A DNA stretch of 64,000 nt, taken from assembly GCA_012646185.1 (NCBI GenBank), contig GCA_012646185.1_4706.1; one strand, written 5' to 3'. The notes below the pieces were generated by a model that had not been told where the DNA came from, did no database searches, and saw only the letters and a list, made by a program, of their open reading frames with translations. The DNA comes from a phage. Shown here one piece after another: positions 3,354-57,267 of the stretch (position 1 is its first letter; each line of letters starts with the position of its first letter). The translations under genes were made by a program, and so were the position numbers.

Positions 3354-4880
3354 TTACTCCAACACATAACGTGGGTTACTGTATATGTTAGCCCATATAC
3401 CAACGTCGGCACCTGACTCAATAATCACGGCGAAACGAAACGCAACATCAGACTCACGATAAGTTACCGCGTACGCTTTCGTTTCCGGTGATGCTAAATA
3501 GCTCAAGTTCAGACGTTGAGGCAGGTCTAACCCCAAGGACATGGTACAAGACGTAACGCCCTGCTTATCGGGGTTCAGTCTGTAATTCACGTCCACCTTC
3601 AAGCTTTTCGTAACCTGCGTAATCGCACTATGCACTTTGGTAACCGTTTTGCCTTTCTTATCCTTTTCTGTTTCGAAAAGAACGTCGGTAATTTCGGTTA
3701 CAACCAGACGCGGTGTGGATTCGCGGTTAGCGTCAAGCCATTCATCCAGTAACGTCTTTAAGAAGTTCAAGGAATCAATTGCACGCCAAGCAAGGTTAGG
3801 CGGGTTGCACGCTTCCATTAAAATGGCTGTGTTCGATCCACCTAGCGGAAGATGCACGCTCTTACCGAGGCCTGTCGGACGCATCGTAAGATCGCACTCA
3901 CCCTCAAGAATATCGCGATGATATTGACGATGATGAAGGTTATCCGTGTATGCGATATACACTGACTCCGTTGTCCCATGCTCTAATACCCGAGATGCAT
4001 GCGTACGCATAATCTCAACAGCATCATCCGGCTTGCTTAGATAGATAACACTGTACGCACTATCGCTAATCCTTTTCCCTAACTCAAGACGTCCCTTGTT
4101 GTCTTTATCAGTGTTACCACCGAAATAGATGTAGCGGCCATCTTTCGCACGCTCTTGCTGCTGGTTGGTGGTAAAGTAGCAGCGTGAGAACGTAAAGAAC
4201 GGGCTTATTTCCGGTTCGGGGCTCCAATACCCCTTAGCCGGAAGTTCGCGGCGTATTTGGGTTCTTACAGCCCAGTCCTGGTTTTGTGACAGATATGTTC
4301 CACGCGTTGCCAGCATATCCGCACGTTCGTTACCAACATTGCCCTCATGTCCAGGAACGTAGCGCAGCGAAATATCGATAGCGTCACGCTTCGCATCCCT
4401 TATCGCGCTATCGAGTTTCCGCCACCGTTCCGCATTCATTAACGGTTTATTGTCGGATTTAACCCAGTTGTTCTCTCGCCAGTTAGCAAGATGGTTGGTG
4501 GCACCTACAACAACATATTGGCTGTCCGACAACAGCTGGATCCGTTTTGCCCCCTTTGCTTTTCCAAGTTCAATCGCACGTATTGCAGCATCCAACTCAG
4601 CCTGATTGTTCGTTACGTTGAAACCCAAAGCCTCTAACTCATCCACGTATTCCTTGGGTTCGACCAGCACAGCGTCTTTAGGAAAGTCGAGTTTAGGGTC
4701 AACATAACCGTATTGCGTTGGTTTGGGCTTCCCGCTTTTTGAGGGTTCCAAGGTGCCTTTTATTTCTTTCACCATATCGTAGGTGTAGCCGTGCACGCCA
4801 TAGCCACCATACCCACTCGATGTTGGACGGGATCCTCCATCGCAGTAGAAAACGGCACCAAGCTCAGTATTTCCTGCCAT
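3354..4880 (-). CDS. rnh: RNase HI-domain protein with ~300-aa C-terminal extension (508 aa from second ATG)
   Basis: N-terminal RNase HI catalytic motifs in canonical order: FYCDGGS (Asp), NNQAEL (Glu), LSDSQYV (Asp), GHEGNVGNERADMLA (His/Asp), with an insertion after strand 1; second in-frame ATG (4880) has GAGGT SD whereas the first ATG (4892) has none. Confidence 0.8.
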   Translation of the reverse strand: MAGNTELGAVFYCDGGSRPTSSGYGGYGVHGYTYDMVKEIKGTLEPSKSGKPKPTQYGYVDPKLDFPKDAVLVEPKEYVDELEALGFNVTNNQAELDAAIRAIELGKAKGAKRIQLLSDSQYVVVGATNHLANWRENNWVKSDNKPLMNAERWRKLDSAIRDAKRDAIDISLRYVPGHEGNVGNERADMLATRGTYLSQNQDWAVRTQIRRELPAKGYWSPEPEISPFFTFSRCYFTTNQQQERAKDGRYIYFGGNTDKDNKGRLELGKRISDSAYSVIYLSKPDDAVEIMRTHASRVLEHGTTESVYIAYTDNLHHRQYHRDILEGECDLTMRPTGLGKSVHLPLGGSNTAILMEACNPPNLAWRAIDSLNFLKTLLDEWLDANRESTPRLVVTEITDVLFETEKDKKGKTVTKVHSAITQVTKSLKVDVNYRLNPDKQGVTSCTMSLGLDLPQRLNLSYLASPETKAYAVTYRESDVAFRFAVIIESGADVGIWANIYSNPRYVLE

Positions 4881-7512: not shown

Positions 7513-7544
7513 CCCTCCTCCTTCCCTGTTGGGTTGGAGGAGGG
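7513..7544. terminator. conserved CT/GA hairpin (CCCTCCTCCTTCCC-TGTT-GGGTTGGAGGAGGG)
   Basis: Member of the intergenic hairpin family; lies between convergent genes. Confidence 0.6.
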
Positions 7545-10192: not shown

Positions 10193-11014
10193 ATGGAAAA
10201 AGTATTTGTTTGTAAGTTGTTTACTAACGGCAATAGCCAACCAATGTACCTGACCGATCCAGTTCTAGGTAATCGGAACAGCACCGTATTCAAAGAAGCT
10301 ATCGAATACGCTAAAAATAAAGCCGTGAGAACACTGACGTCCGATGACTGTATCAACGGTATCACGTGGGCAGAGTTATTCGGTGATGCTGTTAGACACT
10401 TCGTTCGGGACGCAAGAAAACGGGAAATCTGTCTCACGACTATCGTTGTGCGTGAAAATGCAGAAATTTTATCAAACGTTTTGGTTGATTTTAATGACGT
10501 TTGCGTGTTTAATCCAGAGAACACGTTTGAACAATACCTTACTGCCCTGAACAACCAGCTCGGTAAAGATATTCATCCCGAATTCGCCAAGTTAACATAT
10601 CAGTTACTTTTTGACGACGACGATCCAAATACGAATATCGATACCAGCTTATCGCCCCTGGTAAAGAAATACGGATCGGTTCTCGCTACGGCAACACCCA
10701 CCACCGATGGCGGTTATGATATCGAATTGGATGGTCCATTAAAAGAACAAGAGCCTACTGGGGTTAGGGCGGTACATCACAACCTCGTCGTTAAATCTGA
10801 TGGGTGCGATGAACATTACGCTATGATAAACGATGAAAACAATTACCGTTTAAGTCAAGCGATTGGTGTTCTACGCTATACCGAACCCACTGTTGTAGAC
10901 GATTATACATCGACAACAACGCACACCACGTGTTTCATTTTCATCTATCCCAATGAAAGTGTGTACATTACTGACTGCTACGGCAATACCGTAGATAGCT
11001 TACGTCGTTACTAA
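10193..11014 (+). CDS. hypothetical protein (273 aa)
   Basis: ATG at 10193 with AGGA SD (track start 10175 is TTG); followed by intrinsic terminator. Confidence 0.55.
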   Translation: MEKVFVCKLFTNGNSQPMYLTDPVLGNRNSTVFKEAIEYAKNKAVRTLTSDDCINGITWAELFGDAVRHFVRDARKREICLTTIVVRENAEILSNVLVDFNDVCVFNPENTFEQYLTALNNQLGKDIHPEFAKLTYQLLFDDDDPNTNIDTSLSPLVKKYGSVLATATPTTDGGYDIELDGPLKEQEPTGVRAVHHNLVVKSDGCDEHYAMINDENNYRLSQAIGVLRYTEPTVVDDYTSTTTHTTCFIFIYPNESVYITDCYGNTVDSLRRY

Positions 11015-11020
11015 TCGTCG

Positions 11021-11048
11021 AGCCTGTCCTTCGGGGCAGGCTTTTATG
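11021..11048 (+). terminator. intrinsic terminator (AGCCTGTCC-TTCG-GGGCAGGCT then TTTTAT)
   Basis: GC stem with TTCG tetraloop and 3' T-tract, 7 nt after the stop codon. Confidence 0.65.
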
Positions 11049-11116
11049 CTGTTAAATATCAGGAATAAGAATTAACAAAATAGGAAAATGGTGTGAATAT
11101 AACACAAAGGAGGGAG

Positions 11117-11239
11117 ATGATCATGTTACTCATTCTAATGGAGAGAGCATTGCTGGCGGGTATCTGCGCATTCTCTGTTAAACACGCTGTTGCTATCATG
11201 GCTGAAGAAAGGCGTAATACGCATAATGTATTACGCTGA
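11117..11239 (+). CDS. small hydrophobic peptide (40 aa; MIMLLILMERALLAGICAFSVKHAVAIMAEERRNTHNVLR)
   Basis: Unannotated short ORF with strong SD AAGGAGGGAG at ideal spacing; one predicted TM-like segment. Confidence 0.35.
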   Translation: MIMLLILMERALLAGICAFSVKHAVAIMAEERRNTHNVLR

Positions 11240-11349
11240 AAACACTGTGTGCATTAGTGTATGACGAGAAATCGTCGAGGCCCCCGTCTTCACGAGGGCC
11301 AACACCTATGCATGATTATTCATCGTCTGTTAAACAAAAGGTTATAAAC

Positions 11350-11658
11350 ATGAGCAATTTGAACGTTGAATTTACTTCAACAACGCCTGTCATGAATGGT
11401 GTTGGCACTGAAACCAAAATCGTATTAGAACCCATTCCAGGGTTACGCGATCTCGGTGATTTTTATCCACTGATGCCGCGTATACGGAAGGCCTTAAATA
11501 GTATCGATCTTGATTCCAATAAAGATTTCCAACACGATACAGAAAATACCGATCATGTATTGCTGCCATCGGGGATCGCAAAATTCACCTACACGCAAAC
11601 ATTGAAAGCCTCCGATGGTGAAATCCGTCGTTTTATCGTTGAAGTAGAAAGCGCATAA
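11350..11658 (+). CDS. hypothetical protein (102 aa)
   Basis: Internal ATG with AAGG SD preferred over the unsupported upstream start at 11257. Confidence 0.45.
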   Translation: MSNLNVEFTSTTPVMNGVGTETKIVLEPIPGLRDLGDFYPLMPRIRKALNSIDLDSNKDFQHDTENTDHVLLPSGIAKFTYTQTLKASDGEIRRFIVEVESA

Positions 11659-14183: not shown

Positions 14184-14992
14184 GGTGTTACAACAGCCTC
14201 TACTGACCATGGGAAGGTTTTCGCAATAACACCTTCCAGGAAGCGTTCAACTTCCGATTGCTCATACACCGAAAGCTTTTCAAACGGCGTTTGGTCTTCG
14301 GTTAAACCTACCGCATGAATAGGACCCAGGTCTTTAACCAGGGTAACTTCGCCTTTAACGCCTTCGCGCTTAACGATGATCGCGTGGTCATTAACCTTAG
14401 GATCGTACAGCACGCGCATCATGGTTACGGCGTCATCCGGTTCATGACCGAAATCGATGGCAACACGAGCATTCGTCCCTTCATCATCCAGAAGCTTGCT
14501 CAGCGCTTTACAACGGTCTTCAATCCAATCCAACGCAACCACGGTTTCTTGGCGTAGCTGAACCTCAACTTCTTTTCCTTGTTCGTCGATACGTTTCACG
14601 GTAACAAAATCGTGTAATAGGCGGTCAGGAAGGAGGGAAGCAATAAGCTCAACGTCGGGTTCAGGTTTTTCGTTTTCCAGAATGATAGTCGCTTGTGCGT
14701 CCAGATGTTCTTTAAAACGGATGTAACGTGTTAATCGCAGAACTTCATCTTGGGATTTTGCGTCTTCGGGAATAATCTCCGTCATGACGTTATAAATCTT
14801 TTCAGCGAACGTCGGAATTACGGTGATTGTAATTCGTGCTGGTGTACCACGCTCCTGGTACTCATCGGCTAACTTCTTCGCCATCCCGTTAAAATAAGTC
14901 TGGAGAAACGGTTGCTGCGTTAAAAACATTTTCTCCAGATCGGAATAGCGATGCTTGCGTGCATGGCCTAGCTTCTTCATGGGCTTTTTCAT
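14180..14992 (-). CDS. hypothetical acidic protein (270 aa)
   Basis: ATG with AAGGA SD (track start 14995 is TTG); no phosphoesterase (Mre11/SbcD) motifs seen. Confidence 0.55.
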   Translation of the reverse strand: MKKPMKKLGHARKHRYSDLEKMFLTQQPFLQTYFNGMAKKLADEYQERGTPARITITVIPTFAEKIYNVMTEIIPEDAKSQDEVLRLTRYIRFKEHLDAQATIILENEKPEPDVELIASLLPDRLLHDFVTVKRIDEQGKEVEVQLRQETVVALDWIEDRCKALSKLLDDEGTNARVAIDFGHEPDDAVTMMRVLYDPKVNDHAIIVKREGVKGEVTLVKDLGPIHAVGLTEDQTPFEKLSVYEQSEVERFLEGVIAKTFPWSVEAVVTP

Positions 14993-15013
14993 CAACAGAA
15001 ATCCTTATTTGTC

Positions 15014-17470
15014 TTAAATAATCGTGACGTGTTCGTTATATGTTTCAGGGAGAATGATGTTCGTTTTATCAAGAACCATACACTCGGCTTTACGGAACGA
15101 CGCATGGTTGATAACATAGTGGCTGATGAACCACACCTGGCTTACGCGGTGACCATCAACCAAACGACGAACAAAATCCATGGCATTAGATTGGTGCTGT
15201 GGATCAAATGTTGATGCGAATTCGTCTAACATCAACGGATAATCCGTGAACCCTTTGTAATGCATCATCGCGATGATGAACGCGATATTGATAATTTCCT
15301 TTTGTCCCTTACTCCCATAAACAATATCTTTTCGCGGTGTCGGATACTTCTCAGTTAAAAGCGGAAAACGATAGTTCAATCCTTGCGCGTCGATAGCACA
15401 CGGGAGTATCTGAAGTTGGTATTCCCAAATACTTGCAATGATGCCGTTCATGTACTCAACGAACGCGTTGATGGGACCCGCGATTGTTTCGGCAATCAAT
15501 CCGTTAGATGGACTTAACTCATCCAGAACAAGTTGTGCGTAACTGAGCTGTTCTTCCACCTCTTTTTGTGTCGTTTCCAACTGAGCCAGAAGCTGCTGGT
15601 CGGTTTTAGCTTCCTGTAACTGCTGTTCGACATGACTTATTCGGCGAACCGTATCAGACATCGCAGCACGTAACGATTTCGTGTAGAGGTGTTGCAGATA
15701 CTCTAACCACAGTTGCGTTAACGCTTTATCGCTGTTATCAGAACGTACCTGATCTTCCATAATCGCCGTAATGGTTTCCAATCTACCTTCCGTGGCTGTG
15801 ATAGCTTGTGTTAACCGCTCAACGGTTGTTAACAACTCTGTCCTGTTCTTATAAAGCAATTCTCGACGTTGCTGTAACGGTTCAACATCAACCGCTTGTA
15901 CCCGTTCGAGCATACCTTGAAGATGCTTCCGTTCCTGTTCGGCTTGTGTGTAACGCGCGAGTTTCTCAAACGCAAGCAACCAGTCATTAATGATTCCAAT
16001 GCTGCGGAATCCTAAACCGTTTTTACGTCCTTCTTCCAGCAGATTGTCCCACATGGGTTTAATGGCGTAATAATCTTTCGTCCAACGTGTTAACTGACGA
16101 TGCTGTTCCATCCAGAGCGTATAGCGCTGAACCTTCTCACTAAGCTCGGTTAACGATTTCTCCTGTTCTTCAACCCAGGCACGGCCCTTCTGAATACGTT
16201 GTTCAATACCCGCTTTGCTGGTCTTTTCTGTCTCACCAACATGAAAGCGATAATTGCATTTTGGACAGCTGGTCTGGGGTTGATGATTCAGGTGGTCAAG
16301 ATGCGCTTCCAAATCGGCTAACGCATGTTTCGCGTTACGCAAACGCATTCTTGCCGCCTCTTCCTCCTTGATGTAAGCTTCAGCATCGTAAACATGATAG
16401 GTGTTGTCGGTATCAATCCATTCTTGCAGTAATTCCGTTAACGGAGCCTGAACTTGCGTGAGCTGTTGTAAACAAACCGCAGCGTCCAGATTCATTGTTA
16501 AAAGCTCACCTGGATGATCTTGCTGAAGTTGTTCGTCTAAACGTGCAATGCGGGCTTTAATTTGATCGATATCACCTTCGCCAGACTGTTTCAACTGGTC
16601 AAGGATATTATCGATACCCAACAGCTCGTCAACCTGACTTTCGAGTTTTGCATTCGCATTCGCGAGTTGCTCTCTTAGTTCAGCCAGATTCTGCTGTTCT
16701 TGTTGCGATGTTCCTCCTTGGTAACGAACAACCGCACGAAGAAGCTCACGATTAAAATGATGGGCGCGTTGTGCGGATTCCAGAAGCTGTCGTTGATCAA
16801 CATCGCTATCGAATAACGGCAATCCCATCATCGCTTCGAGCGCTGAGCGTTGCTGTTTTAACTCTGCTTCCAATCCCTGGTGGTCGGTGCCGGTGTATTT
16901 CGCTTCGATGCGCTGTGATGTTTCAACCAACTTATTCAGTGTATGCTCATTCACCGCTTTCAGTGAACGTACTTGTTGCTTAACCACCTGAAACAACTCG
17001 AGTGCGTAATCGACGTTAACCGGACATATCTGCGTTAATCGTTCGCGACGTTTCATCGGTCCCATTTCGGTGAACTGGTAAGCCGTTTCGTAACCTAACA
17101 ACAAACGAATAGTGTCATCATTAAGTTCGAAATGTTCTTCGATCAGTTTCCACTGAGCGGGTTGTGTGCCACCACCATTCAGGTTCTCGCTGTCGTTAAC
17201 GTAGAACTCATGCTTAAACCCTTTTTCTAAACGACTGATAAGACGGTATTGCTTATTACGGTGTTCGCAGCGGTACTCGTAATACCCGTCTTTATCAAAA
17301 TCGGCACGCTCAGGAACGGTCGGATACAGCAAAGGCAATAGACTACTCTTACCCGAACCGTTGCTGCCTAAAATGAGTTGTACGGGATTATCTGGCCGGA
17401 TGACCAGCTCCCGAATCATCCCGGTATCAAAACGATTGAATCCACGTAAGTGGAGATAGGTGCATCGCAT
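15014..17470 (-). CDS. SbcC/Rad50-like SMC-family ATPase (818 aa)
   Basis: Walker A GSNGSGKSS ~36 aa from the chosen ATG, long heptad-rich middle with CPKC zinc-hook-like motif, signature-like SKGQKE, Walker B LMLDEF, H-loop FISHY. Confidence 0.8.
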   Translation of the reverse strand: MRCTYLHLRGFNRFDTGMIRELVIRPDNPVQLILGSNGSGKSSLLPLLYPTVPERADFDKDGYYEYRCEHRNKQYRLISRLEKGFKHEFYVNDSENLNGGGTQPAQWKLIEEHFELNDDTIRLLLGYETAYQFTEMGPMKRRERLTQICPVNVDYALELFQVVKQQVRSLKAVNEHTLNKLVETSQRIEAKYTGTDHQGLEAELKQQRSALEAMMGLPLFDSDVDQRQLLESAQRAHHFNRELLRAVVRYQGGTSQQEQQNLAELREQLANANAKLESQVDELLGIDNILDQLKQSGEGDIDQIKARIARLDEQLQQDHPGELLTMNLDAAVCLQQLTQVQAPLTELLQEWIDTDNTYHVYDAEAYIKEEEAARMRLRNAKHALADLEAHLDHLNHQPQTSCPKCNYRFHVGETEKTSKAGIEQRIQKGRAWVEEQEKSLTELSEKVQRYTLWMEQHRQLTRWTKDYYAIKPMWDNLLEEGRKNGLGFRSIGIINDWLLAFEKLARYTQAEQERKHLQGMLERVQAVDVEPLQQRRELLYKNRTELLTTVERLTQAITATEGRLETITAIMEDQVRSDNSDKALTQLWLEYLQHLYTKSLRAAMSDTVRRISHVEQQLQEAKTDQQLLAQLETTQKEVEEQLSYAQLVLDELSPSNGLIAETIAGPINAFVEYMNGIIASIWEYQLQILPCAIDAQGLNYRFPLLTEKYPTPRKDIVYGSKGQKEIINIAFIIAMMHYKGFTDYPLMLDEFASTFDPQHQSNAMDFVRRLVDGHRVSQVWFISHYVINHASFRKAECMVLDKTNIILPETYNEHVTII

Positions 17471-17584: not shown

Positions 17585-18673
17585 ATGAGCGACCTGGCAA
17601 CAGACAATCGCACAAAAGGGAGTCAGCTAGCTCCAGACAACAACGTAAGCGTTTTCCGTATCTATGCCTTGGGTACTGTTGCTGCCGACTTTTCCAATAA
17701 AAGTCTGGAGGAAGATCCTAACCAGGCGCTGGAGGTCTTTCTTGATGAGATGATGTCAGGCGCTGATGGGAAAGTTGAAGCGGCGGGAAGCGTGAAAGAA
17801 GTCAGTGCAACAGACGCTCAAGGGAACAGCTATACGGCGAAAGCGGCAACAACAACCAGCGTACAGTGTTATTGGTTACCTTTCGGTAGTAACCGGATGA
17901 CAGCACCTAACTTGAGGAAAGGTCAACGTGTGGTGGTCTGGCGTACCGCCGATGAAGAACAACTCTACTGGCAGCCCAAAGGAGGGGATAGTGAGCTGAT
18001 GACCATGGAATCGGTTATCCTCACCGTCAGCGCACGTCCTAGCGCTAAGAAGGACCGTAAATCGATTTCAACGGAAGACTGCTATTACCTAATGGTTGAT
18101 ACCTTCCTCAAGAAAGCGGTTATCGGTACAAGCGCACAGCTTGGTGAAGTTACCCAAGTCTACATGGAACTTAATCTGGACGAGGGTTACCTACAGGTTG
18201 CGGACAGCGTCCATCAAAATCTGTTGTTACTCCATTTTGTCGAGCATATGCTGCGTTATCAAAATCAGGATGACAGCATCATCGACGTGACAAAAAAGAA
18301 CATCACATTCCAATGCGAGGATACGCTCAAAGCAATCGCTAAGAACGATATCCGAATGAAAGCAAAAAATATTTATACCGAATGTGAGAACTTTGAACGT
18401 ACCAGCAAAACAGAAAGCGTTACGAGTCAGAATGTTTCTTTGAAGTGTGATCGTTACACCGCGCAAGTATCAGGACAGACCACGTTTAAATGTCCGAATA
18501 CGGTATTCACTGGAGCTGTAAGCTTCACAGGTGAAGACGGAAACACGATGACGTTGAATGGAAACTTCATACACATCGCAGGCTCTTGGCGTTCACCAAC
18601 CGGAACAAACGTATACACCCACGATCACGGCGGTGTAGATCGTGGTAGCGGTCGCACAGACCCGTTCCAATAA
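17585..18673 (+). CDS. hypothetical protein (362 aa)
   Basis: ATG with AGGAG SD; lone plus-strand gene inside a minus-strand block; followed by hairpin. Confidence 0.6.
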   Translation: MSDLATDNRTKGSQLAPDNNVSVFRIYALGTVAADFSNKSLEEDPNQALEVFLDEMMSGADGKVEAAGSVKEVSATDAQGNSYTAKAATTTSVQCYWLPFGSNRMTAPNLRKGQRVVVWRTADEEQLYWQPKGGDSELMTMESVILTVSARPSAKKDRKSISTEDCYYLMVDTFLKKAVIGTSAQLGEVTQVYMELNLDEGYLQVADSVHQNLLLLHFVEHMLRYQNQDDSIIDVTKKNITFQCEDTLKAIAKNDIRMKAKNIYTECENFERTSKTESVTSQNVSLKCDRYTAQVSGQTTFKCPNTVFTGAVSFTGEDGNTMTLNGNFIHIAGSWRSPTGTNVYTHDHGGVDRGSGRTDPFQ

Positions 18674-22486: not shown

Positions 22487-22568
22487 TTAAAAAGTTCCTC
22501 TGTTTTTCACGTTAATTAAACAACGTATTGATTTCTATTTGACGCAATACGAACATTGTACGTATGCA

Positions 22569-22593
22569 TCACTAAGGTAATATAGTCGTGAAA
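22569..22593 (-). promoter_or_regulatory. conserved 25-nt motif copy 2 (plus strand TCACTAAGGTAATATAGTCGTGAAA)
   Basis: ~83 nt upstream (minus orientation) of the 21704..22486 start. Confidence 0.5.
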
Positions 22594-23286
22594 GGATTTG
22601 TGTTACAGAAAGGGTTTTGTTGTGTTTTAAGAAGGGATGGATTTAGAAGAGGTGTTTCATGGAAGGTAAACGAGGATAGGTATTTTGATTTAAGTAAGTA
22701 AGATGTTATCTGTATTCGTTAAAAGTGTATTGTTTATCTTAGGTTATGTCTTATTGTTTAATCGTTTAATATTTTTATCTAAGTAGGTTTAACTCTATCT
22801 TGTTTGTATATTTAAATTAAATCAATAAGCTTATCTTCAAAACAATGGATAACATGTGTTTACTACCTTAACGGTAACACATGTCATCTGTGCATTACAC
22901 TCCGTTATCACTTCGTTACATGCTTATAAGTTGGATAACTCAAAAAAACATTTGTGATACTCTTCTTCACGTTGTTCATCAGAGTATCTCGTCTATACTC
23001 ATTGCATTCGTATACGACATAACCGTTATACGCTAACGCTACGCTTATAGCTTGATAACTCTAAGGATAAAAACATAAACTCGCTTCGCTCGTTTAGTTT
23101 TTCTTTTTCTTAGAGTTATCCTGTTGCTCGTCTCTAAAGGACTTCGCTCCTCCCCCGTCCCCCGAAGGGGCCGGAGTCGTGGAAATTTTACTTTCCAAAT
23201 ACATTTACAACATCTGTAAACTTTTACTCCAGGTACTTAATCTTATCATTAGAAATTATAAAGAGAAGAATAAACACAAACATAAA

Positions 23287-23318
23287 CCTTCCTCCAACCC
23301 AACAGGGAAGGAGGAAGG
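23287..23318. terminator. conserved CT/GA hairpin (minus-strand reading CCTTCCTCCTTCCC-TGTT-GGGTTGGAGGAAGG)
   Basis: Directly downstream of the 23335..24228 stop. Confidence 0.6.
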
Positions 23319-23334
23319 GAGAGCTTGATTTTAA

Positions 23335-56435: not shown

Positions 56436-57005
56436 TTAGACGATGAGTGACCAGGTGGTAAGCACCCCGCTTGCGAATTCGAGCTTAAGACGTTTACCGA
56501 TAAGTTGTTGTTGGATCATCTTCTCGGTGATACGTCGATCATGCTGAACCGCTTTATCAAACGCTTCTTTCGCTTCAGCTTGGTAGAAGTTCGTTTCTTC
56601 GTTTTCGTCGATCTCTTCGAGAGCATCGTCGTCGATGTCAGCAAGTTTCACTCGACCGTTTTCATCAGGTTGTTCTGCAGGTTCATTGTCATACGGCGTG
56701 TCTTTTGTTGGTGCGACACGATGTTGCAACTCGACCTGCGTTAACATGATCTCCATCTCACCATCGATAGGAATGATTTCATCGGCGCTGCCGTTTTCGG
56801 TCAGCTCTCGACTTTCCAGTAATGTCGTCGTAACAGAGAACACCTCTTCAACAGGAACCTCATCATCGTCGATGGTGTTAACCGTATTGCTGGTAACTTC
56901 GGCAACAACCATCAAATCAAATGCGTGAGGGTCACCTGGCATTTTGATTCCTGGAAGTTTGTTGAGGTACCAAGGATCAAGAATCATGATTTCTGGATTA
57001 AACAT
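56436..57005 (-). CDS. highly acidic protein (189 aa)
   Basis: ATG with AAGGT SD; Asp/Glu-rich (DDDEVPVEE, DIDDDALEEIDENEE); ~200 nt downstream of motif copy 4. Confidence 0.55.
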   Translation of the reverse strand: MFNPEIMILDPWYLNKLPGIKMPGDPHAFDLMVVAEVTSNTVNTIDDDEVPVEEVFSVTTTLLESRELTENGSADEIIPIDGEMEIMLTQVELQHRVAPTKDTPYDNEPAEQPDENGRVKLADIDDDALEEIDENEETNFYQAEAKEAFDKAVQHDRRITEKMIQQQLIGKRLKLEFASGVLTTWSLIV

Positions 57006-57207
57006 CGTATTTTACCTTTCTATGTTAGGTGGATTGCGGATAGAAGAATCAATGCATAGATTGATAGTTCTTTGTTAGAAATTATTGCCGAACCGGTTAT
57101 GGTTATAACGCGTGTTTTCGTATTCTGACGGGTCGCGTATTAATAAGGCCATGACTGTATCCTCGATTATTAAGAGAAATTTACAACGATAACAGTAACC
57201 GCTGTTA

Positions 57208-57232
57208 TCACCTAGGTAATGTAGTCGCGAAA
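57208..57232 (-). promoter_or_regulatory. conserved 25-nt motif copy 4 (plus strand TCACCTAGGTAATGTAGTCGCGAAA)
   Basis: 35 nt from the family hairpin at 57268; same arrangement as copy 3. Confidence 0.5.
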
Positions 57233-57267
57233 TAAACTGGAGTAATGCGAAATAAGACAGCATAGAA

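Follow-up and report, generated by a model that had tools for sequence, protein, structure and literature searches.

The stretch of DNA analysed here (64,000 nt, referred to below as the window) has a 97% relative in Escherichia phage vB_EcoM_Goslar, an E. coli jumbo phage of the nucleus-forming family Chimalliviridae. Goslar coordinates are converted to window coordinates by adding about 7514. The Goslar record begins at window position 7515, which is intergenic between convergent genes, and the window is continuous across that point. Hence, the Goslar record starts where a permuted or circular map was cut arbitrarily.

The locus of interest comprises the orthologs of Goslar gp005 and gp007, a small open reading frame (ORF) between them, and several structured elements (Table 1). 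The neighbours of the small ORF are thus two virion proteins, together with a thymidylate kinase. According to LC-MS/MS of Goslar virions, gp005 is present in ~8 copies and gp007 in ~250 copies per virion (bioRxiv 10.64898/2026.04.21.720040, Table S4). Among the relatives described below, the dN/dS ratio is about 0.15 for gp005 and about 0.07 for gp007. The sequence-only reading of this DNA had placed the ORF in a gap of about 240 bp past an intrinsic terminator, and this description is accurate. The gap measures 242 bp to the next mechanically called ORF and 335 bp to the real start of gp007, and the hairpin and T-run downstream of gp005 are genuine: the hairpin folds with -18.1 kcal/mol (z -3.4), the terminator is also annotated in Goslar, and the hairpin is kept in all relatives.

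Table 1. Features of the gp005-gp007 region, in window coordinates.
Feature	Position	Strand	Remarks
Upstream gene, Goslar gp005 ortholog (low-copy virion-associated protein)	10193..11014	+	96% amino acid identity
Intrinsic terminator of gp005	11020..11047	+	10-bp stem, UUCG loop, UUUUAU tail
Shine-Dalgarno sequence AAGGAGG	11107..11113	+	3 nt before ATG 11117, 9 nt before ATG 11123
Small gene, Goslar gp006 ortholog	11123..11239	+	38 codons + stop; 40 codons from the alternative ATG 11117
Hairpin H1	11211..11237	+	11-bp stem, 5-nt loop, within the last 9 codons; -12.7 kcal/mol, z -5.5
Y-shaped element	11249..11313	+	65 nt; -29.8 kcal/mol, z -4.65, MFE equals centroid
TATG, candidate phiKZ-type late (nvRNAP) promoter core	11307..11310	+	G 11310, putative gp007 start site
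Downstream gene, Goslar gp007 ortholog (abundant virion protein)	11350..11658	+	99% amino acid identity

The order of gp005 with its terminator, the small ORF and gp007 is the same wherever the contigs of the relatives are long enough. In one of them, L017 (ENA ERZ28649724, VATA22-2 scaffold_1, about 1133-1500), gp005 is mostly deleted or not callable and only fragments of it align; the counterparts of window 10825-10968 and of everything upstream of 10746 are absent, and the small ORF, the hairpins and gp007 are intact.

Other reading frames in the gap were also considered. The gp007 frame is open upstream to ATG 11308 (116 aa) and to GTG 11257 (133 aa) in the window, and the 116-aa form is reported by some gene callers and by a protein-database representative. 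Both extensions were rejected, since single-nucleotide indels in Goslar and other relatives break the frame, and ATG 11350 is thus the real start of gp007. A 28-aa ORF at 11261-11347 has no Shine-Dalgarno (SD) sequence. An antisense 46-aa ORF at 11059-11199 has none either, and its start codon is lost in three relatives.

The small ORF itself was described correctly by the sequence-only reading: AAGGAGGGAG is followed by ATG 11117, an ATC codon and a second ATG at 11123, the frame closes with TGA at 11237-11239, and the 40 codons of 11117-11239 translate to MIMLLILMERALLAGICAFSVKHAVAIMAEERRNTHNVLR. The ORF is, however, unannotated only in the length-limited ORF track that was available to that reading. 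Its translation from position 11123 is identical to Goslar_00006 / HOV27_gp006 (Goslar 3610-3726), a hypothetical protein of 38 aa. An exact-sequence look-up of the 38-aa peptide returned QBO63799.1 / YP_009820691.1 and found it on 433 public contigs, and its protein cluster contains 36 variants. The ORF is already annotated in GenBank and RefSeq and is not new. Across the ORF region, the window and Goslar differ by one base, which lies in the codon between the two ATGs (ATC/ATT).

The Goslar annotation begins gp006 at the second ATG, whereas some gene callers give a product of 40 aa. The near-ideal ribosome-binding site that had been assigned to ATG 11117 does exist, but its spacing suits the other start: AAGGAGG is 9 nt away from ATG 11123 and only 3 nt away from ATG 11117. 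In 11 annotated Goslar genes around the locus, an SD-like core is found 5-9 nt before the start. As ATG 11123 falls within this usual range, it appears to be the likelier start, and the product is more likely to be 38 aa long; a start at ATG 11117 is probably two codons too early. The same 'AGGAGATGACAATG' arrangement is found in gp003, the annotated start of which is also the second ATG. The duplex of AAGGAGG with the anti-SD sequence has an energy of -12.1 kcal/mol. The GAGG core is retained in all relatives, and so are both ATGs, with one exception: one lineage has GTG in place of the second. The intervening codon encodes Ile, Asn or Thr, and never a charged residue.

The combination of an SD sequence, an ATG and 38 codons is not by itself beyond chance. 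In 64-kb sequences simulated with a Markov-1 model using the dinucleotide statistics of the window, AGGAGG followed after 3-11 nt by an ATG and at least 38 codons occurred in 30% of cases, with a mean of 0.35 per simulated window versus the one observed. It is the conservation in relatives that lifts the ORF above chance.

For this comparison, 22 distinct versions of the locus were assembled from the protein database, IMG/VR and metagenome contigs found via gp007. Eight of them were retrieved through gp007, so that their recovery did not depend on whether the small ORF had been called. The relatives diverge by up to 13-16%, and all are at least 84% identical. The sequence-only reading had suggested conservation of the ORF with synonymous variation in related phages as a check, and this is borne out: all 22 distinct sequences carry the ORF intact, with no indel, stop or frame disruption, and its variation is biased towards synonymous changes. 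The flanking spacers of the same relatives do carry single-base indels. Intactness as such is nevertheless weak evidence because the fraction of random substitutions that create a stop is just 1-3% and the relatives are at least 84% identical.

The main rival explanation is that the ORF is fortuitous and that the region is a non-coding control region, namely 5'/3' untranslated RNA and promoter of gp007, conserved for its structure or its protein-binding sites. A more careful look at the variants argues against it. The 32 variant alleles in the ORF comprise 14 synonymous and 18 nonsynonymous changes and no stop, and in none of the other five frames is the synonymous share as high. Compared with a neutral expectation of 23-31% synonymous changes, 14/32 gives P=0.008 at kappa 1 and P=0.09 at kappa 6.8, which is the observed transition bias. 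With 32 variants and P=0.09 under this realistic bias, the selection signal for coding is modest, and this counts in favour of the non-coding explanation, as does the appearance of the SD and ORF pattern in nearly a third of the simulations. The variants common to at least two sequences comprise 9 synonymous and 6 nonsynonymous changes (P=0.019), a proportion equal to that of gp005 (116:84), whose product has been confirmed by mass spectrometry (MS). Within residues 1-22, none of the shared variants changes the amino acid, and differences among the common public protein alleles are limited to residues 24-31. Nonsynonymous changes prevail among the singletons (12:5). The dN/dS ratio of the ORF is 0.11-0.14 in comparison with the most diverged relatives; in relative L003, the ORF carries six nonsynonymous changes and one synonymous change.

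Codon usage and diversity can be set beside these counts. The codon-usage log-odds of the ORF is 0.13, the best of the six frames; it falls inside the range of real genes (13th percentile) and exceeds that of 97% of off-frame segments. Nucleotide diversity is 0.03-0.06 in the ORF, like that of its coding neighbours, and 0.08-0.13 in true spacers. The genome is tightly packed, and an empty gap of 335 bp would be unusual. The presence of a full AAGGAGG at a phage-typical distance from an ATG likewise speaks against a fortuitous ORF.

The non-coding explanation draws support from the 3' end of the ORF and the sequence past its stop codon. As RNA, the region as a whole has strong structure (z -3.3 to -5.5), and its best-conserved stretches are constrained at the nucleotide level. 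Hairpin H1 is made up of the NTHNVLR codons and the stop codon and is nearly invariant, including its synonymous sites, which are unchanged in the relatives. Only two substitutions have occurred in its stem, at the base (C-G to U-G and G-U to A-U), and both keep the pair while altering the amino acid (Arg to Cys and Arg to Lys). The Y-shaped element beyond the stop codon consists of two closing stems around the hairpins GACGA-GAAA-UCGUC and GGCCC.CGU-CUUC-ACG.GGGCC. In an alignment of 20 sequences, one of them the 13%-diverged L027, just two changes were seen over 62 columns, both of them singletons; this degree of conservation matches the best-conserved coding segments nearby. As the sequence hardly varies, covariation cannot test the structure of this element. 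It has no Rfam match (E<=1) and is neither a tRNA nor a tmRNA, and its covariance model found no second copy in the window. Constraint at the nucleotide level on the best-conserved parts could explain part of the conservation. On the other hand, none of the RNA pairs predicted within the ORF is supported by compensatory changes, and several are broken. With all the evidence combined, we consider it likely, judging from the comparison of sequences, that the ORF is a translated gene, and we regard a purely non-coding region as doubtful.

The conserved block that contains the Y-shaped element ends sharply right after CCTATGC. In phage phiKZ, the non-virion RNA polymerase recognises late promoters with the consensus 5'-TATG-3' and starts transcription at the G (PMC4666361), and 5' untranslated regions (5'UTRs) are typically 31-40 nt long (PMC8244752). 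Here, the distance from G 11310 to the ATG of gp007 is 40 nt. Because TATG lies at the edge of the block, the resulting 5'UTR would be 40 nt long as in phiKZ, and gp007 is an abundant virion protein, we infer by analogy with this distant relative that the conserved block holds the late promoter of gp007. By the same kind of analogy, H1 and the Y-shaped element would be where the gp006 transcript ends, or would stabilise it. Scans for sigma-70-type promoters are irrelevant here because the phage uses its own RNA polymerases. It should be kept in mind that TATG is frequent by chance and that TATGCAT is not enriched in the window (6 observed versus 7.8 expected).

TATGCAT occurs six times in the window, three times in intergenic DNA. 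One other copy, at 57052-57058 on the minus strand, precedes the start of the gp046 ortholog (56436-57005, minus strand) by ~47 nt, and its geometry matches that of the TATGCAT of gp007. No further copy of the conserved blocks upstream (GTGTGAATATAACAC) and downstream (TTAGTGTATGACGAG) was found, and a k-mer comparison with all other intergenic regions gave scattered matches only. An apparent motif of AATCGTCGAG plus a hairpin, shared by the gp005 terminator and position 11270, was dismissed as a coincidence: there are only two exact copies, the first of which is not conserved.

Two further places in the window are worth recording. Close to the gp046 ortholog, the start of the gp047 ortholog (57075-57263, minus strand, 62 aa) is situated inside the stem of the upstream terminator hairpin, and an internal ATG at 57152 with a GAGGA SD sequence would give only 25 aa; on sequence grounds, the annotated start of gp047 looks doubtful. 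The other is an 848-bp gene-free stretch at 22487-23334 between two minus-strand virion-protein genes, which is unannotated in Goslar too (14972-15825). Inverted repeats built on GATAACTC occur in it, and Rfam gave no match; it might serve as an origin or a packaging site, or encode non-coding RNA.

A bolder interpretation of the gp006 locus takes the ORF, which would be strongly translated, H1, the Y-shaped element and TATG as one undescribed module that controls the timing of gp007, or takes the peptide to be membrane-active. The module as a whole would then be a terminator for the phage polymerase, a processing site or a promoter-licensing switch, and the peptide could target the inner membrane or the early-infection vesicle of the Chimalliviridae. 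We consider this improbable.

The possibility that the ORF is a regulatory upstream ORF or leader peptide, which the sequence-only reading had listed, was examined against the same data. In this view, a ribosome translating the ORF would rearrange both H1 and the Y-shaped structure, with the effect of tuning read-through into gp007 or gp007 translation. Several features are compatible with such a role: the stop codon is in or at the foot of H1, which a terminating ribosome must melt; stable structures occupy the 110 nt between the ORF and gp007; the SD sequence is unusually strong for the phage; and when one sequence is folded alone, positions 11310-11328, immediately before the gp007 ribosome-binding site, pair with the SD/start region. 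This long-range pairing is, however, absent from the 20-sequence consensus and shows no covariation. The hairpins of H1 and the Y-shaped element are not followed by a U-tract before gp007, so that there is no terminator of this type between the ORF and gp007. Residues 1-22 are constrained as an amino acid sequence, and leader peptides, apart from arrest peptides, do not usually have a conserved amino acid sequence. Furthermore, transcription from TATG would start the gp007 mRNA past all the structures and would place the ORF on a different transcript. These points weaken the leader-peptide proposal, and we hold it to be distinctly improbable.

The description of the product as a hydrophobic peptide with a basic tail remains plausible, given its hydropathy, a predicted single helix and gene-like codon usage. 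The N-terminal 19 residues have a mean Kyte-Doolittle value of 2.13, and AlphaFold2, run with a 10-sequence alignment, predicts one helix over residues 2-39 (pLDDT 84). The tail is basic, with a net charge of +2 plus two His residues, and the peptide contains two invariant charged pairs, E7-R8 and K20-H21. A Hessa-type position-independent sum is estimated at about +1 kcal/mol. The predicted transmembrane propensity is borderline because of the invariant Glu-Arg pair in the middle of the segment.

We also attempted to find homologs of the peptide outside the close relatives. It has no family match in Pfam, PHROG or NCBIfam (E<=1-10) or in PADLOC, and no paralog within the window. A word-indexed search of 5.8 billion proteins returned only nine 38-aa clusters of 84-97% identity. 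A profile search of 1.84 billion representatives returned its own cluster and one 492-aa protein, which we took to be a spurious match in view of its weak, low score. More diverged syntenic relatives were sought via gp005 and gp007. No gp007 homolog outside the Goslar-like clade was found in IMG/VR, in GenBank phages (by tblastn), in JGI metagenomes or in the protein database. The only distant homolog of gp005 is in Erwinia phage pEa_SNUABM_9 (27% identity), where the neighbours are different and there is no comparable small ORF. Judged by these searches, gp006 is an ORFan confined to a narrow group of Goslar-like phages.

The peptide is absent from the LC-MS/MS table of Goslar virion proteins (bioRxiv 10.64898/2026.04.21.720040, Table S4). 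Four tryptic peptides of 7-12 residues are expected from it: MLLILMER, ALLAGICAFSVK, HAVAIMAEER and NTHNVLR. Its omission from the table indicates that it is not a detectable component of the virion, and also counts in favour of the non-coding explanation.

Taken together, these findings lead us to conclude, with moderate confidence, that this small ORF, orthologous to gp006, is a real protein-coding gene, which would encode a helical peptide of 38 residues that is likely associated with a membrane. It would be translated most likely from ATG 11123 behind a very strong SD sequence and fold into one continuous alpha-helix, as predicted. This helix would consist of a hydrophobic N-terminal part of 19-22 residues with the invariant Glu-Arg, a variable part (residues 24-31) and the basic C-terminal tail. 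In the infected cell, the peptide may exist as a small membrane-associated helix, either single-pass or oligomerising, probably with its N-terminus outside and its basic tail in the cytoplasm, and it would act on a membrane or a membrane protein and would not itself be part of the virion. H1 and the 65-nt element ending in TATG most likely represent the 3' end of the gp006 transcript together with the gp007 late promoter.

A more specific role as a lysis-timing or membrane-depolarising factor, i.e. a holin/antiholin-like or type I toxin-like pore former, in line with the small membrane toxins and holin/antiholin-like modulators named by the sequence-only reading, appears very improbable: the peptide is small and hydrophobic with a basic tail, its Met-X-Met double start recalls lambda S107/S105, and E7-R8 and K20-H21 could form charge zippers as in TisB, but residue 2 is I, N or T and never charged, the endolysin is about 14 kb away and the locus sits between virion-protein genes and not in a lysis cassette, the peptide belongs to no Pfam, PHROG, NCBIfam or PADLOC family, and there is no conserved antisense ORF, the antisense start codon being lost in L003, L027 and L019. 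To our knowledge, 38 aa is shorter than any known holin.

As a discovery, the ORF is of small value: it is an annotated hypothetical protein of one narrow phage genus with no inferable function. It does provide a worked case in which a 38-codon ORF below the usual length cut-off is supported by population-level variation. The adjacent, nearly invariant structured element with its TATG is a more curious feature than the ORF. The locus thus combines a small peptide, a structured element and a candidate late promoter before the gene of gp007, one of the most abundant uncharacterised virion proteins, and it is compact and testable in Goslar, a model nucleus-forming phage.

Comparison with known systems helps to put these features in perspective. 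Holins are about 60-150 aa long, and in lambda the Met-Lys-Met extension adds a positive charge. The gp006 peptide resembles lambda S105/S107 in its two in-frame starts one codon apart, its hydrophobic helix and its basic C-terminus; it differs in being 38 aa long, in having at most one marginal transmembrane domain, and in that residue 2 is uncharged and variable. The Goslar endolysin gp024 (17700-18335, corresponding to about 25.2-25.8 kb in the window) is not linked to the small ORF. With small membrane proteins and type I toxins (TisB, Hok, Ibs/Ldr and ShoB; the regulators AcrZ and MgrB), the peptide shares a length below 50 aa, a single predicted helix, a hydrophobic N-terminal part and a charged tail. 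It has no sequence or HMM relationship to them, and its borderline hydrophobicity and internal Glu-Arg pair set it apart. A type I toxin-like action can be proposed only by analogy. The likeness of the gp007 upstream region to phiKZ late promoters lies in a TATG that precedes the start codon of a virion-protein gene by 40 nt, whereas the ~60 nt of nearly invariant, strongly self-complementary sequence upstream of it are undescribed for phiKZ. With Goslar gp006, finally, the likeness extends to the sequence, the position, the SD sequence, the terminator and the downstream hairpins, all of which are the same as in the window, and nothing of substance differs.
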